From: a virus
Lineage: Duplodnaviria; Caudoviricetes
Virus record (IMG/VR): IMGVR_UViG_3300028591_000003
Span: 1-64,000 of that record
Length of the DNA: 64,000 nucleotides
Reading direction: 5' to 3' (one strand)
Shown: positions 46,679 through 51,656 of the stretch, one piece after another
Position numbering within the stretch: the stretch's first letter is position 1
Layout of the letters: each line of letters opens with the position of its first letter
Notes under the pieces: model-generated
What the model was told of the DNA's origin: nothing
What the model saw: the letters and a program-made list of their open reading frames with translations, nothing else
Database searches by the model: none
Translations under genes and position numbers: made by a program

Positions 46679-47419
46679 TTATTTTAAATTTTTTATTTCT
46701 TCTTTTGTTGTAGGAAGTCCCTAAGCTTTACACCATTTTCGTATAGCATTATCAGTAACTCCATACATTCTTCCAATTTCACAAAAAGATCGAGTCTAGA
46801 TCAATCGTAGTAATTCTTCTCGTTCCGGTCTTTCAACTTTTTGTAAACTTTTATGGTAACATTCTAAACATCTAGCTCCTTTAGTTGGAATTTCCTTTCC
46901 GCAATCAGGACAATAATAATGTTTAGTTTCTTTTTTCTAAGATTCTATTTTTTCTTTATATTTTATATAAGAATCTTTAAGTTTTTGCGTGTGTTTAAAA
47001 ACATTTGTAATTAAATAATCTTCTGCTTTGCTATAGTTTTGTTGTCCATTTGCAGGAGGTTCTAATCTTAATGTTTTAGAAGTTTTACATTCTTCAACAG
47101 GAACCACATAAACCTTTCCTTTAAAATAAGTAGCAAAATAATCTATTTCTTTATTAGAATAAGTATATCTAATAGTTTCTTTAGTATTAGTAGTTTGACA
47201 AGTAGTACTAAAACTAAATGCATCTTCTTTTATTTTGCCGTGGTCATTAACATAATTAGAACATTTGCATTGGATTCTATAAAGATGTTCTCCATCATCT
47301 GCTATAAAATCATACTTTGCTCCATTTCCATATGGAATTGAACATTCAAAACCTAGCTAAATAAAAGATGTAATACACCGTAACTCATTTGAGTTACCCA
47401 ACATTTGTGTATAATCCAT
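46679..47419 (-). CDS. free-standing PD-(D/E)XK homing endonuclease with Zn ribbon and HTH, 246 aa, TAG read through
   Basis: GNSNEL..SIPYGNGAKYDFIAD..RIQCK, IDYFATY, CPDCG..CLEC, EIGRMYGVTDNAIRKWC; four in-frame TAG (47357, 46937, 46796, 46721). Confidence 0.88.
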
Positions 47420-47460
47420 AAATTAAATAAATTAAATAATTATTATAACTATCTACTAAG

Positions 47461-47533
47461 TCGGGAAGCCAGAATTCGAATCCAGTCCGCAATCTCCCAA
47501 AGATTTCATGCTACCATTAAACACCACATCCCG
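47461..47533 (-). tRNA. tRNA-Pro(UGG)
   Basis: CGGGA acceptor, loop TTTGGGA. Confidence 0.85.
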
Positions 47534-47582
47534 ATAAGTAAACTATTTTCACAAACAATTTACTTTGGATTATACATAATTT

Positions 47583-47708
47583 TAAGAATCAAATAGGGAA
47601 TCGAACCCTATACTAAATATAACTTATAATCTTAAAGTAGCTACCCAATAAGAAGTTATATTCTACAGATTTTTCCTCCTGCTTTACCCTTTTCGCCATT
47701 GATTCTTA
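47583..47708 (-). ncRNA. tRNA-like RNA with degenerate anticodon arm and ~55-nt extra arm
   Basis: acceptor-like TAAGAATCAA/TTGATTCTTA, D-arm-like TGGCGAAAAGGGTAAAGC, T-arm TAGGG-TTCGATT-CCCTA. Confidence 0.7.
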
Positions 47709-47711
47709 ATA

Positions 47712-47820
47712 AATAATCCTCTCAACGTATTCCACGAGCAGTTTAATGGTCTATAGATGCCATAGTTGAGCACTCTTTATAGTGTATTCTCTACACAACT
47801 GCTAAGTGTTTAGGATTATT
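47712..47820 (-). ncRNA. candidate pseudoknotted RNA
   Basis: terminal AATAATCCT/AGGATTATT; AGCAGTT/AACTGCT; crossing CTCAAC/GTTGAG. Confidence 0.6.
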
Positions 47821-47824
47821 ATAG

Positions 47825-47897
47825 ACTCGGAGGTAGGAATCAAACCTACACAAACTGTTTTTGCAGAACAGTGACTTAATCATTCATCCACTCCGAG
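47825..47897 (-). tRNA. tRNA-Cys(GCA), A19-U56 elbow variant
   Basis: loop CTGCAAA, U73. Confidence 0.85.
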
Positions 47898-47903
47898 TAA
47901 TAA

Positions 47904-48208: not shown

Positions 48209-48308
48209 TGTTGAGGCATTATTCTTTTTATCTATAATATGTATTTATATTATGTACACTATACAAATAAATATTAATAGGAAGTGTGTAGCCTCCAAAA
48301 CACTTCTG

Positions 48309-48382
48309 TTCTGACACCTGGACTTGAACCAGGGATCTCTTGATTATCAGTCAAGTGCACTAACCTACTATGCTATGTCAGA
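48309..48382 (-). tRNA. tRNA-Ile(GAU)
   Basis: loop CTGATAA. Confidence 0.9.
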
Positions 48383-48386
48383 ATTT

Positions 48387-48530
48387 GCTAGGACTTCCTC
48401 TACCTAGCTTTGCAGATTTTCCTATGAAGGAAGGTTTACTCATACTAAAGTAATGAGGACTTCTCAATATATTTTGAGACATTATATATTGAACTCGTAG
48501 GCTCTGCTTAACCTTACCCGAAAGGATTAT
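48387..48530 (-). ncRNA. structured 5' leader or sRNA at the head of the tRNA cluster
   Basis: GCAGA/TCTGC, CCTA/TAGG, TCAATATAT/ATATATTGA, CTCAT/ATGAG, GCTAGG/CCTAGC. Confidence 0.45.
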
Positions 48531-48580
48531 TAAGTTATTATATAATAAATTATATTCAAAATAAAAAATGCTAAAATTTG

Positions 48581-49252
48581 TTAATTACAAAATTTTAATA
48601 AAAGGTCTAAACATCCTCCTTGTTTTTCGTAAACAACAATCTTAGTTCCTCGACCTTGTCTAGGAGCAATTTTATGAAATTTTTCTATAGCTCTATTATC
48701 TACTCTAAAACAACCGTGAGATATATTCATTCCATTAAATAAAGGATTTCCTGTACCATGTAATCCTACTCCAGATCTTCCTCCATTATGATTAGTTCTA
48801 TAGAAATAAGTTCCAAATGACATAGTACCTCCATCTTTGGATTCTCCGTTTTCTGGAGCACCTAATCTAAAAGAACCATTAGGACTTTTATTATCTCCAG
48901 TTTTTGATTTATCACCTTTAATCAATCCTGTTCCTACTGGGGATGATATTTGTAATTCACCATTATTATCGTAATACCTAGCTAAATGATTTCTTTTATC
49001 TATAGTCCAAGTATTCCTTGGATTATTAACTTTTTCTCTTGTGAACCAAGGAAATACTCCTGTTACCATAGCATTAGCTCTATTTTTCAGAGCAACAGGT
49101 AATTTAACAACACCAGTAGCTGCAGCAGAAATATTTCTTAATGCTTCAGATCCAGTATTTACTGCTGCCTAATTAATTATATCAGTAGTAGGTTCAATTG
49201 GTTCATTAATAAATTCAAGAGCTTTCTGTAAAAAACTTTTTTCTTTATCCAT
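48581..49252 (-). CDS. L,D-transpeptidase (YkuD family), 223 aa with one TAG read through
   Basis: SPVGTG, SPNGSF, VGLHGT..ISHGCFRV; frame extends through TAG at 49169 to an ATG overlapping the upstream stop. Confidence 0.85.
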
Positions 49253-49787
49253 AGGCGTAAATATATATATTTCCTTTTTTATAAAAATATTTTAATACTC
49301 CAATTGTAGTAAGACTGACAGTAAAACATCCTCTACTTTCAGAAGTTATAGGAATTAACACCCCGTTTGGAGTAAGTGATACTCCAAATCCAGGGTGTAT
49401 TAAAATTCCTCTAGTTTCAGCATTTGAATTTGTATTATTTAAACCTCGTAATCTAAAACAGTCTACCATTTTATTACTACGCATTTTATCTAAAGTAGTA
49501 ATTTTATATAGTCCTAAACTAGAACAATTACTTCCTATTTTATTACTAAATTCAGGTTTAAATATTGTACTTTTCCCTCCGTTTCCGTGCTGAACTTGAG
49601 CTGAATAAACAATCATTTTCTTATGTACATCATATATGAATAGTCTATTCATACAAGATAATCTTCTAAAATCTACAAAACATATATAATTTGCATCTTT
49701 AGGAATATTAATCTTCGGAATACCAAAGGGATAATAAATGATTAATGATACTATAAATATAAATAATATTATTAATATCTTCTTCAT
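49245..49787 (-). CDS. membrane-anchored L,D-transpeptidase catalytic domain protein (YkuD_2-like)
   Basis: N-terminal TM; FSNKIGSNCSSLG, LRGL..TNSNA..RGILIH, SRGCF. Confidence 0.85.
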   Translation of the reverse strand: MKKILIILFIFIVSLIIYYPFGIPKINIPKDANYICFVDFRRLSCMNRLFIYDVHKKMIVYSAQVQHGNGGKSTIFKPEFSNKIGSNCSSLGLYKITTLDKMRSNKMVDCFRLRGLNNTNSNAETRGILIHPGFGVSLTPNGVLIPITSESRGCFTVSLTTIGVLKYFYKKGNIYIYAYG

Positions 49788-50128
49788 AATTTAGTTATAG
49801 TACATTTCTTAGTATTAATTTTAAATTTACCTAAAGAAGAATCAACAACATATACATTTCCTTTTTTAGAAATAATTTTTGCTGTTATTCCTAGACATTC
49901 GAAACTTCCATCAGTATTCTTTTTTATGTTGTATTCACCAAGAGGAGTATTTACAACATATTTTTCTGGAGTACTTTTTATAATTCCATAAATAGTTCCT
50001 ACAGGAGCTTCTTTTACTTTGTTGATAACTTCATTTTTAATAGTTTCAAAAACACTTGTTTCGGATTGTGCAAACCCGTTAATGCTCATACCTAGTACAA
50101 ACATTAATAAAATTAACATTCTTTTCAT
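49784..50128 (-). CDS. secreted small beta-repeat protein
   Basis: signal peptide (GFA-Q); internal repeat YVVNTPLGEY/YVVDSSLGKF. Confidence 0.7.
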   Translation of the reverse strand: MKRMLILLMFVLGMSINGFAQSETSVFETIKNEVINKVKEAPVGTIYGIIKSTPEKYVVNTPLGEYNIKKNTDGSFECLGITAKIISKKGNVYVVDSSLGKFKINTKKCTITKL

Positions 50129-50129
50129 A

Positions 50130-51656
50130 TTAATTAATTAAATTAGATAAAAAATTCTAATCTAAATTATTTTCACTAATTAAATTCTATAATAAATTCT
50201 CAGACTATTCAGTCATATGTCTTGTATTATGTCCTGTTCCATATTTTGTTCTAACTGGAGTTTTATCAGCTTCTGTTAATCTATCTCCGGTATAGAATCT
50301 TTTACCATAAGGATTATTTACAGTATAATCCCACCAATCTCCATATCTAAGATTTGTTCCATTTTCATCATCAGCAACAAGAGATTGATTTCCCATATAT
50401 CCCATGTTTGGTAATATATAAGCAGTATGATCATCATTCCAATAACCTTCTTTACTATGACTTAAGAAATAATTAGCCATTTCTGAATTAATCCTCTCTC
50501 TTTGTTTAGAATCCTTAATTCTATATGTACTAGCACCTCTAGCTTTTGCAGTAGGAGATTCGTAATCAGGATTAATTTCATAAGTGTCCCACTACTAAGG
50601 TCTACCAGCATACATATTCATTTGATCAAGTCTTGCTCTTATTTCAAATTGATTATTTAAAGGATCACCAATAATTCTAACAGTTCCATTTGGTGCGTTT
50701 CTTGATAAATTACGCCATTCAGCCATACCTTCTGGAGTAGATAAATCAAGTGCTGCCATTCTTTCGACATATTCTCTTCTAGGATCTTTTCCTTTAACTC
50801 CATTAATAAATTTAGAAATTAAAGAACTAGCTTGCAAAGTAGCGGGATCATCAGCAGTTGTTTGTCTTACGTGTCCTTTAGAATCATCACCTGTATAAGG
50901 TTTTAATCCATCTTTTGTCTATATTACATCGCCATAACTATATGGATAAGCATTATCAAAAGATCTTTGAACAACCTTACCAGCAATCCAACCAAGAGGA
51001 GAAGCTTTAACAGCTGTAGTAAATAAATCTTTTCCTCCTTCTTTTATATTTCCACCAAGAAGTTTATCTAAAGACTAATTAAATTCCTCTCCTACTATCG
51101 TACTTCCTTTTCTTTCATCTTCTTTTTTCTAAATAGGCTAATTACTAATTTTCTTCTATCTTCTTCCACTATGATTTTTTATAGCCTATTCAGTCAAAGA
51201 ACCTCTAACTCCATCAACAGCCTATTCGTAAGTTATTTCTCTTCCTTTTTTATCTTTTAATCCTTTATATGCTCCGTTTTTCCATAAATAATCTTGAAGT
51301 ATTGTAATACTATTTGACTTTGGTTTATTATTCAACCTCTAATAAAATATTCTTTGATTATTTAAATTAGATTCTCCTCTATTTAGAGCCTATGTAAAGT
51401 TTTGTTTTCTAGTTGATTTTTTATTTCCGGAAATCCTAATATTTTGTCCAATTTCAATTTTATTAGGATCTTTAATATCAGAATTTAATTTTAATAATTC
51501 CTATAAAGACATTCCGTTAGTCTTTGCTATTTTACCTAAACTGTCTCCTTTTTTTATTGTAACAAATCCTCCACTCTAAAAGAATTTTATGAAATTTTTA
51601 TTTTTAAATCTTTCAATAGGATTTTTATTAACTATTACATTCATATTATTTTTCAT
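50130..51656 (-). CDS. LysM plus peptidoglycan-binding-like domain protein, 508 aa, TAG read through
   Basis: one frame with 16 TAG and no TAA/TGA; LysM VTIKKGDSLGKIAK..LN..IKDPNKIEIGQNI; LQDYL..AVDGVRGSLTE.AI; final TAA lies 1 nt before the next ATG. Confidence 0.9.

Follow-up and report, generated by a model that had tools for sequence, protein, structure and literature searches.

Three genes of a phage genome are interrupted in frame by TAG codons, and the questions raised are whether these codons are read as an amino acid, which amino acid that is and what decodes them. The window (the whole stretch of DNA analysed, 64,000 nucleotides) covers the opening 64 kb of a phage record that is complete at 176,443 bp and carries terminal repeats. 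The three TAG-bearing genes, given below with two neighbours, all lay on the minus strand; each ended in TAA and contained no internal TAA or TGA.

50130 to 51656, minus strand: LysM-protein gene, 508 aa, 16 in-frame TAG, stop TAA
49784 to 50128, minus strand: ORF of 114 aa, no family match, no TAG, beginning 1 nt past the LysM-gene stop
49245 to 49787, minus strand: YkuD_2 (L,D-transpeptidase-fold) gene, 180 aa, PF13645 (E = 1.6e-23), no TAG
48581 to 49252, minus strand: YkuD (L,D-transpeptidase-fold) gene, 223 aa, PF03734 (E = 6.7e-14), TAG at codon 28
46679 to 47419, minus strand: predicted free-standing homing-type endonuclease gene, 246 aa, TAG at codons 21, 161, 208 and 233

The first-pass annotation had described a 508-codon frame with 16 TAG and no TAA or TGA, tiling exactly with the next gene, a nuclease with 4 TAG and a third gene with 1. 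These counts were reproduced on the minus strand (508, 246 and 223 codons, with a PF11645 match for the nuclease), as was the tiling (ATG of the 114-aa ORF at 50126–50128). Plus-strand readings of the three intervals were rejected, as they contained stops throughout. The LysM gene likely starts at the ATG at 51656; an alternative TTG at 51722 merely adds AT-rich sequence.

Chance does not explain the TAG-only frames. TAG accounted for only 22% of minus-strand stop trinucleotides, so the chance probabilities, calculated from the stop-trinucleotide counts, were tiny: p ~2e-11 for all 16 internal stops of 50130–51656 being TAG, and p ~1e-15 for a 508-codon frame without TAA or TGA. The first TAG fell at codon 27 of the LysM gene, 21 of the endonuclease gene and 28 of the YkuD gene; by our arithmetic this early position (codons 21–28) was not significant given the TAG counts.

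Coding density was calculated from greedy ORFs over the whole genome: code 11 gave 0.665, reading TAG as sense (as in code 15) gave 0.924 and reading TGA as sense gave 0.685. The gain with TAG as sense therefore identifies a stop-codon-recoded phage, and the earlier view that recoding was limited to three genes was refuted. Plus-strand late ORFs contained 523 TAG in 27,576 codons (19.0 per 1000), early minus-strand ORFs 51 in 22,123 (2.3 per 1000). Of the ORFs in the plus-strand late block, whose structural part spans ~88–173 kb, most contained TAG, as did two minus-strand genes adjoining the suppressor tRNA described below. Twenty-two of the 51 early-block TAG belonged to the three window genes (counting the LysM ORF from TTG 51722) and the rest were mostly at ORF starts or ends, leaving the three window genes as the only ones in the early minus-strand block with clear internal TAG. 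The early block is written for translation by a standard-code host.

The terminase and portal genes, with 16 and 15 TAG respectively, were intact only if TAG was sense, and then matched PHROG families over their full length (phrog_6681, E = 2e-74; phrog_6547, E = 3e-49). The terminase was ~27–30% identical to its tblastn matches, which came from 144 records, most of them uncultured crAss-like, Bacteroides or Flavobacterium phages. As judged from terminase and portal homology, the phage is crAss-like; the closest GenBank records, MT835470.1 and MT835539.1, are unclassified. The host is likely one of the Bacteroidota. We put at about 90% the probability that this is a complete 176-kb crAss-like phage in which TAG encodes glutamine late in infection.

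Were the three genes decaying pseudogenes, their TAGs would be nonsense mutations never read through. Decay is common in mobile endonuclease genes, the block around the three genes is otherwise free of internal TAG, and TAG233 of the endonuclease gene aligned to TAT (Tyr), one mutation away, in two homologues. However, all 21 internal stops were TAG, with no frameshift, in a genome of 29% GC whose most frequent stop triplet is TAA, and Pfam domains extended across the TAG sites. Moreover, TAG354 and TAG355 of the LysM gene fell on conserved Gln positions: they aligned to CAA and CAG in L001 and L002, the two relatives from the metagenome scan in which homologue codons were read, and the TAG354 column was Gln in 24 of 28 LysM-protein homologues. 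The 523 TAG of the late genes, essential virion genes among them, and the existence of a suppressor tRNA also count against decay, which we consider extremely improbable.

The residue was estimated from 207 TAG sites that were aligned to the standard-code relative MT835470.1. Gln was the commonest partner (42), followed by Glu (29), Asn (17) and others. By empirical log-likelihood, Gln was favoured over Glu by 61 nats at n = 207 and by 38 and 39 nats at n = 82 and n = 61, and it was still best at local identity of at least 0.4 and at least 0.5; Glu edged ahead in the two subsets that were both smallest and most strictly selected (n = 19 and n = 8). If TAG encoded Glu, ~39–54% E and 5–6% Q would be expected among the partners, versus 13–14% E and 20–36% Q observed. 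TAG also occupied motif positions for Gln. In an SF1 helicase domain, whose motifs (SF1 motif III, SQGxE) were read directly from the translation, it stood at the invariant Gln positions GDFK[Q]L and GAS[Q]GQE; a phmmer search of this segment against the PDB returned no match. In a PF18013 lysozyme it stood in the GxxQW motif (GIA[Q]W), where phi29 gp13 has Q (GLVQW). The alignments thus support TAG as a sense codon with Gln as the best-fitting residue, in line with the earlier impression that its contexts suit Gln, and the alignment to Gln together with the late-gene bias is the known code-15 pattern of crAss-like phages.

TAG could alternatively be sense for Glu, Lys, Tyr or pyrrolysine. Glu gains from being the second commonest partner and from its lead in the two tiny subsets, but its expected frequencies and the Gln motif positions speak against it. 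The rest of the evidence on this point comes from the tRNA genes.

43459 to 48382, minus strand: tRNA cluster of 16 genes, 15 found by ARAGORN and 1 by Rfam, none with a CUA or Gln anticodon
Genome positions 84701 to 84777, plus strand: tRNA(CUA), found by ARAGORN, Rfam 44.1 bits, conventional cloverleaf

ARAGORN and Rfam (which alone detected tRNA-Tyr(GUA) at 45447–45528) bore out the statement that the adjacent cluster has no CUA or Gln anticodon. The first-pass annotation had placed the decoding machinery elsewhere or taken it to be non-standard. Elsewhere was correct: tRNA(CUA) lies outside the window but within this genome, at a distance of 33 kb, where the early minus-strand and late plus-strand blocks meet. 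Nothing non-standard is needed, since this is an ordinary cloverleaf tRNA. A tRNA-Gln(UUG) is also encoded past the window end. Of the further decoding genes that had been suggested, neither RF2 nor GlnRS was found: the genome contained no match to RF1/RF2 (PF00472, PF03462) or GlnRS (PF00749). Published recoded phages usually lack RF1/RF2 and GlnRS genes too.

A copy of tRNA(CUA) in another IMG/VR contig was 94% identical, with a compensatory change of G5-C68 to A-U and an A-U pair in place of the C6/A67 mismatch. The features U1-A72, G2-C71, G3-C70 and A73 are common to phage tRNA-Gln, but also to tRNA-Phe, so the identity elements are not diagnostic; identity to tRNA-Gln(UUG) was 65%, barely above that to tRNA-Pro. 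The tRNA(CUA) body alone does not prove Gln identity. This leaves some room for another residue, as does the label 'Pyl' given by ARAGORN; the label, however, merely denotes a CUA anticodon, and the short variable region sets the tRNA apart from type II tRNAs of the Leu/Ser/Tyr kind. We judge it very unlikely that TAG specifies anything but Gln.

The endonuclease was predicted to be of the homing type. It consists of a PD-(D/E)XK domain (residues 4–135; PF11645, 82.1 bits, Pfam cut-off 26.1) and a C-terminal DNA-binding domain common to HNH homing endonucleases. Homologues of both domains sit within tRNA clusters of other phages, and here the gene is placed between tRNA genes, with no intron evident. 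TAG21 and TAG208 aligned to E/R/K, and from its alignments this gene by itself does not identify TAG as Gln.

The remaining genes form a putative wall cassette (LysM protein, 114-aa ORF, YkuD_2, YkuD), in which the middle two have zero TAG and YkuD_2 shares a 4-nt overlap with its neighbouring gene. The YkuD protein (53.1 bits, cut-off 23.4) shows the catalytic-type His/Cys motif HG...SHGCFR and is a predicted enzyme, transpeptidase or hydrolase; it had no match among phages. The LysM domain occupies N-terminal residues 33–75 of the LysM protein, followed by a conserved C-terminal domain (~201–508) without recognised fold. For this domain, Foldseek returned nothing in the PDB at E <= 0.001, VIA-align wide gave a maximum Z of 3.6 and BFVD gave none. 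Neither the protein nor the family alignment as query found LysM relatives in viral contigs, and tblastn against GenBank phages matched the LysM module alone. The gene neighbourhood of the family is not conserved among relatives, and L002 lacks adjoining YkuD genes. Upstream of the cassette was found a candidate terminator.

51851 to 51875, minus strand: terminator-like hairpin and T-run, pattern match only

Its position suggests that the cassette forms a separate transcription unit. A search for a late-promoter motif shared by the regions upstream of the TAG-rich operons and the LysM gene gave only low-complexity k-mers, all regions being AT-rich, and a sigma-70-like promoter scan stayed at background level.

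For the recoded window genes we infer the following timing. Early in infection, host RF1 would terminate the three genes at their first TAG, giving harmless short peptides. As the suppressor tRNA accumulates, charged by host GlnRS, the TAG genes would be read through. The wall cassette and the endonuclease would in this way be delayed until late, despite their position in an early-oriented block. Because the TAG-rich gene is first and the cassette genes abut or overlap, termination in it may also lower downstream expression by polarity. That the suppressor tRNA serves as a translational timer in trans for genes outside the late module, with premature termination in the leading cassette gene silencing the whole operon early, and that the LysM C-terminal domain is a new type of peptidoglycan-acting enzyme, is proposed tentatively, with the odds somewhat against it.

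Two observations count against this model: the middle cassette genes have no TAG, and the upstream regions gave no late-promoter motif. Codon usage also bears on the timing. The three genes and the two TAG-free cassette neighbours had a late-like score above that of 76–92% of early genes; the score was based on synonymous codons with Gln codons left out, and separates early and late classes moderately (AUC 0.75). Such codon style could reflect history rather than expression timing, had the three genes been gained recently from another TAG-recoded phage. The endonuclease is a mobile-element type of gene, LysM-family relatives occur in differing neighbourhoods, and MT835470.1 lacks all three genes. 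On the other hand, the GC of the three genes (0.28–0.32) is close to that of the genome (0.29), TAG makes up 59% of the Gln codons of the LysM gene, above the late-gene mean of 39%, and published recoded lineages independently enrich TAG/TGA in lysis and homing endonuclease genes (10.1101/2021.08.26.457843). Recent acquisition is considered unlikely; it concerns origin only and is compatible with decoding of TAG by the suppressor tRNA.

Reportedly, TAG-to-Gln (code 15) recoded crAss-like phages were described by Ivanova et al. in 2014 and by Yutin et al. in 2021. Such recoding is already published, the present case is ordinary and knowledge of how recoding works is unchanged by it. As in code-15 crAss-like phages, early and replication genes fit the standard code, the phage has its own tRNA(CUA), Gln is the residue to which TAG aligns, the strongest TAG bias is found in a wall-acting gene and an early-region homing endonuclease is recoded. 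Unlike in those phages, the strongly recoded wall cassette stands by the tRNA cluster in an early-oriented block rather than in the late module, and the genome has no RF2 gene. The terminase is just ~28% identical to those of classical crAss-like phages. Among the results given by Peters et al. (2022; PMC9523058) is metaproteomic evidence for code 15 in crAss-like phages, with TAG as Gln.

In the phages of Borges et al. (10.1101/2021.08.26.457843), whose crAss-like set has genomes of ~105 kb, compared with 176 kb here, recoding favours the homing endonuclease of an intron as well as lysis genes. The TGA-recoded group I intron homing endonuclease of their Agate phages resembles the present one in having recoded stops in a mobile endonuclease within an otherwise standard-code region, stops that would withhold its production until late. 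It differs in that the present gene uses TAG, not TGA, stands free between tRNA genes and has a PD-(D/E)XK fold (PF11645). Zeta crAss-like phages (PMC12386605) likewise have a large genome with a suppressor tRNA and a tRNA gene block; as here, their early genes contain little TAG, and a TAG ending an ORF is soon backed by another stop. Several of them carry a CUA tRNA without recoding, whereas the present genome is heavily recoded.

The phage would add a clean case in support of an idea already in the literature, in which recoded stops hold back wall-acting genes and selfish endonucleases until the late phase; the genes presumed to be gated here are outside the late module, and the timing of promoters would not by itself restrain their expression there. 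The main value is practical. Annotation of this phage requires TAG = Gln, and standard-code annotation splits the genome into fragments; public protein collections already list two code-11 fragments of the LysM gene as distinct entries.

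Three minus-strand genes carry internal TAG codons and lie close to two neighbours that have none.

50130-51656, minus strand, LysM protein of 508 aa; LysM domain at residues 33-75, and a C-terminal domain that is conserved but has no family match
49784-50128, minus strand, 114-aa ORF without TAG
49245-49787, minus strand, YkuD_2 gene without TAG
48581-49252, minus strand, YkuD-fold enzyme of 223 aa with an SHGCFR motif
46679-47419, minus strand, endonuclease of 246 aa with a PF11645 PD-(D/E)XK domain and a C-terminal domain common to HNH and other homing endonucleases

The 114-aa ORF and the YkuD_2 gene lie between the LysM and YkuD genes. 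Abutting or overlapping one another, the four wall-related genes resemble a single cassette. The frame coordinates in the first-pass annotation were right; all three TAG-containing genes are read on the minus strand, and plus-strand translation at the same coordinates gave stops throughout. The LysM frame was found to comprise 508 codons and to end in TAA; it contains 16 TAG and is free of TAA and TGA internally. The 4 TAG reported for the endonuclease gene and the 1 for the YkuD gene were likewise counted in frame. TAG makes up only 22% of minus-strand stop triplets, and arithmetic from stop-triplet counts yielded p ~2e-11 for TAG at 16 of 16 internal stops in the LysM gene and p ~1e-15 for 508 codons without TAA or TGA. 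The LysM gene adjoins the next gene as described, the ATG of the latter standing 1 nt past the LysM stop. Its own start is likely ATG at 51656, preferred because TTG at 51722 brings in only AT-rich sequence. TAG accounts for 16 of its 27 Gln codons, the largest TAG share seen in this analysis. Clear internal TAG in the window is confined to the three genes. A terminator-like hairpin (51875-51851, minus strand) and an acidic 36-aa ORF (51835-51727, minus strand) lie upstream of the cassette, in the gap that separates the LysM gene from the 130-aa gene before it.

The IMG/VR record (176,443 bp, direct terminal repeats), of which the window forms bases 1-64000, is complete by its rating. The recoding was confirmed by a comparison of codes across it, in which greedy-ORF coding density rose from 0.665 under code 11 to 0.924 when TAG was read as sense, and to 0.685 when TGA was. 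TAG is a sense codon genome-wide in the late genes. The plus-strand block from ~88 to 173 kb contained 523 TAG in 27,576 codons, whereas the minus-strand block to ~83 kb was nearly without TAG, and the TAG share of Gln-type codons was 39% in the late block and 8% in the early block. Two TAG-rich minus-strand genes stand just past the suppressor tRNA (85275-86504, 17 TAG; 86594-87892, 8 TAG). Among the products of the late block are a terminase (phrog_6681), a portal (phrog_6547), giant virion proteins and tail proteins. The terminase shares about 27-30% identity with those of classical crAss-like phages and 41-43% with those of two unclassified human-gut records. Other TAG in the early block fell either upstream of the true start or near the end of five ORFs, each followed by TAA or TGA 1-9 codons later.

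4119-4475, minus strand, early ORF with near-terminal TAG
10499-10669, minus strand, early ORF with near-terminal TAG
52362-52637, minus strand, early ORF with near-terminal TAG
56189-56473, minus strand, early ORF with near-terminal TAG
57485-57805, minus strand, early ORF with near-terminal TAG

In these five ORFs TAG probably still acts as a stop, and the TAA or TGA behind it is probably a backup, curbing read-through when the suppressor is there.

The first-pass annotation had proposed Gln as the meaning of TAG, and this was established at the level of sequence comparison. TAG was translated as X across the genome, which was then aligned by tblastn to MT835470.1 (117 kb), a relative in standard code (density 0.94-0.97 under code 11) in which ARAGORN found no tRNA gene. 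Aligned residues were obtained for 207 TAG sites (Q 42, E 29, N 17, R 14, T 14, K 13, rest fewer). With a model drawn from the substitutions in these alignments themselves, Q fitted the 207 sites best, E being 61 nats behind; after filtering on local identity Q was ahead by 38 nats at 82 sites and 39 nats at 61, and tiny filtered subsets of 19 and 8 sites leaned to E. TAG occupies the glutamine positions of GDFK[Q]L and GAS[Q]GQE, both invariant in SF1 helicases, in an SF1 helicase domain inside a 3106-aa late protein. This SF1-type domain lies beyond the window, at genome 150262-152061 (L007:10403-12202), both motif glutamines being TAG. A PF18013 tail lysozyme likewise has TAG in its GIA[Q]W motif, at the place of a Q in phi29 gp13 (PDB 3csr). 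TAG354 and TAG355 of the LysM gene correspond to CAA/CAG in two metagenome relatives (L001, L002), and their columns hold Q in 24 and 16 of 28 homologues, respectively. The partners of TAG in the endonuclease gene (TAG21, E/R/E; TAG208, K/R; TAG233, Tyr) do not identify the residue.

The cluster in the window contains 16 tRNAs as claimed, 15 found by ARAGORN and tRNA-Tyr(GUA) (45447-45528, minus strand, long variable arm) by Rfam only (32.8 bits); CUA and Gln anticodons are absent from all of them. The expectation that decoding machinery lay elsewhere was borne out: whole-genome ARAGORN gave 24 tRNAs, including tRNA-Gln(UUG) at 68150-68221 and a tRNA(CUA) at 84701-84777 (plus strand; Rfam 44.1 bits), where the early and late blocks meet. 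The puzzle of a missing suppressor disappeared once the whole genome was read, and the first reading is in this sense partly supported. An IMG/VR scan with the 15-nt anticodon arm of tRNA(CUA) returned 58 loci, 34 of them with tRNA(CUA), on widely differing tRNA bodies. One copy (L067:273-349, IMGVR_UViG_3300033463_000181) is 94% identical and differs in the acceptor stem by G5-C68 to A-U and by the C6/A67 mismatch to an A-U pair, as expected of a tRNA under structural constraint. The tRNA(CUA) body is 65% identical to phage tRNA-Gln, hardly above tRNA-Pro, and its U1-A72, G2-C71, G3-C70 and A73 are common to tRNA-Gln but also to tRNA-Phe; judged from its sequence, the body by itself does not diagnose the amino acid. 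No RF1/RF2 or GlnRS domain was found in the genome, so charging of tRNA(CUA) must rest on the host, and host RF1 would continue to compete for TAG.

Early in infection the host would terminate at the first TAG of the LysM, endonuclease and YkuD genes (codons 27, 21 and 28, respectively); as tRNA(CUA) builds up, the three genes would be translated to full length. Synonymous codon usage was scored with Gln codons excluded for these genes and the two TAG-free cassette neighbours. All five outscored 76-92% of early genes, on the late-like side of classes that separate only moderately (AUC 0.75), and the adjacent 199-aa gene was early-like.

Recoding of this kind is already known, and the present case is of low interest beyond correct annotation. 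In crAss-like and other recoded phages, replication genes stay in standard code, structural and lysis genes are recoded, a recoded-codon bias is unique to lysis genes, a homing endonuclease within an early gene has been recoded so that it is produced late, and only 40% of TAG-recoded genomes have a detected TAG suppressor tRNA (Borges et al., 10.1101/2021.08.26.457843). Metaproteomic evidence that two crAss-like phages use code 15 (TAG as Gln) is reported by Peters et al. (PMC9523058). Zeta crAss-like phages have large genomes with blocks of tRNAs and with CUA suppressor tRNAs, and a second stop stands near their TAG stops (PMC12386605), a pattern similar to that of the five early ORFs here. 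The present phage agrees with all three descriptions and differs in minor respects: its wall cassette, which is recoded, sits beside the tRNA cluster in the early-oriented block, it is without an RF2 gene, and its lineage is far from classical crAss-like phages. The nearest GenBank relatives by terminase, MT835470.1 (L010, L012, L013) and MT835539.1 (L011), are unlike in code; the former is in standard code whereas the latter is recoded at TAG, its density being 0.39 by code 11 and 0.91 with TAG as sense. This difference indicates code switching within the lineage.

The LysM C-terminal domain (residues 201-508; 50133-51056, minus strand) gave a confident AlphaFold model (pLDDT 87.8, pTM 0.85), and no fold match to it was found in PDB (Foldseek; VIA-align wide Z ≤3.6) or BFVD. 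The whole protein as query returned 16 50%-identity clusters at E < 1e-30, a few matching LysM repeats only. Homologues of the C-terminal domain have PG_binding_1 or nothing where LysM stands here, and this replacement suggests that the domain may be an uncharacterised wall-acting module. In L001 and L002 a LysM-family homologue with one TAG near its N-terminus starts right behind a tRNA-Asn gene (L001:1183-1257, L002:2353-2427); other neighbours there are unlike those in the window (F420-ligase-like gene, methyltransferase, Ldh/Mdh gene). Public protein collections hold the LysM gene both whole, as a 504-aa full-length recoded call (P0004), and in pieces, 91-aa and 80-aa entries (P0019, P0023) being identical to its inter-TAG stretches. 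Both endonuclease domains have homologues within tRNA clusters of unrelated phages (L015, L016, L017, L018; Bacillus phages Thrax1 and Izhevsk, Salmonella phage SM5 and Pectobacterium phage My1), which suggests a homing endonuclease family targeting phage tRNA arrays.
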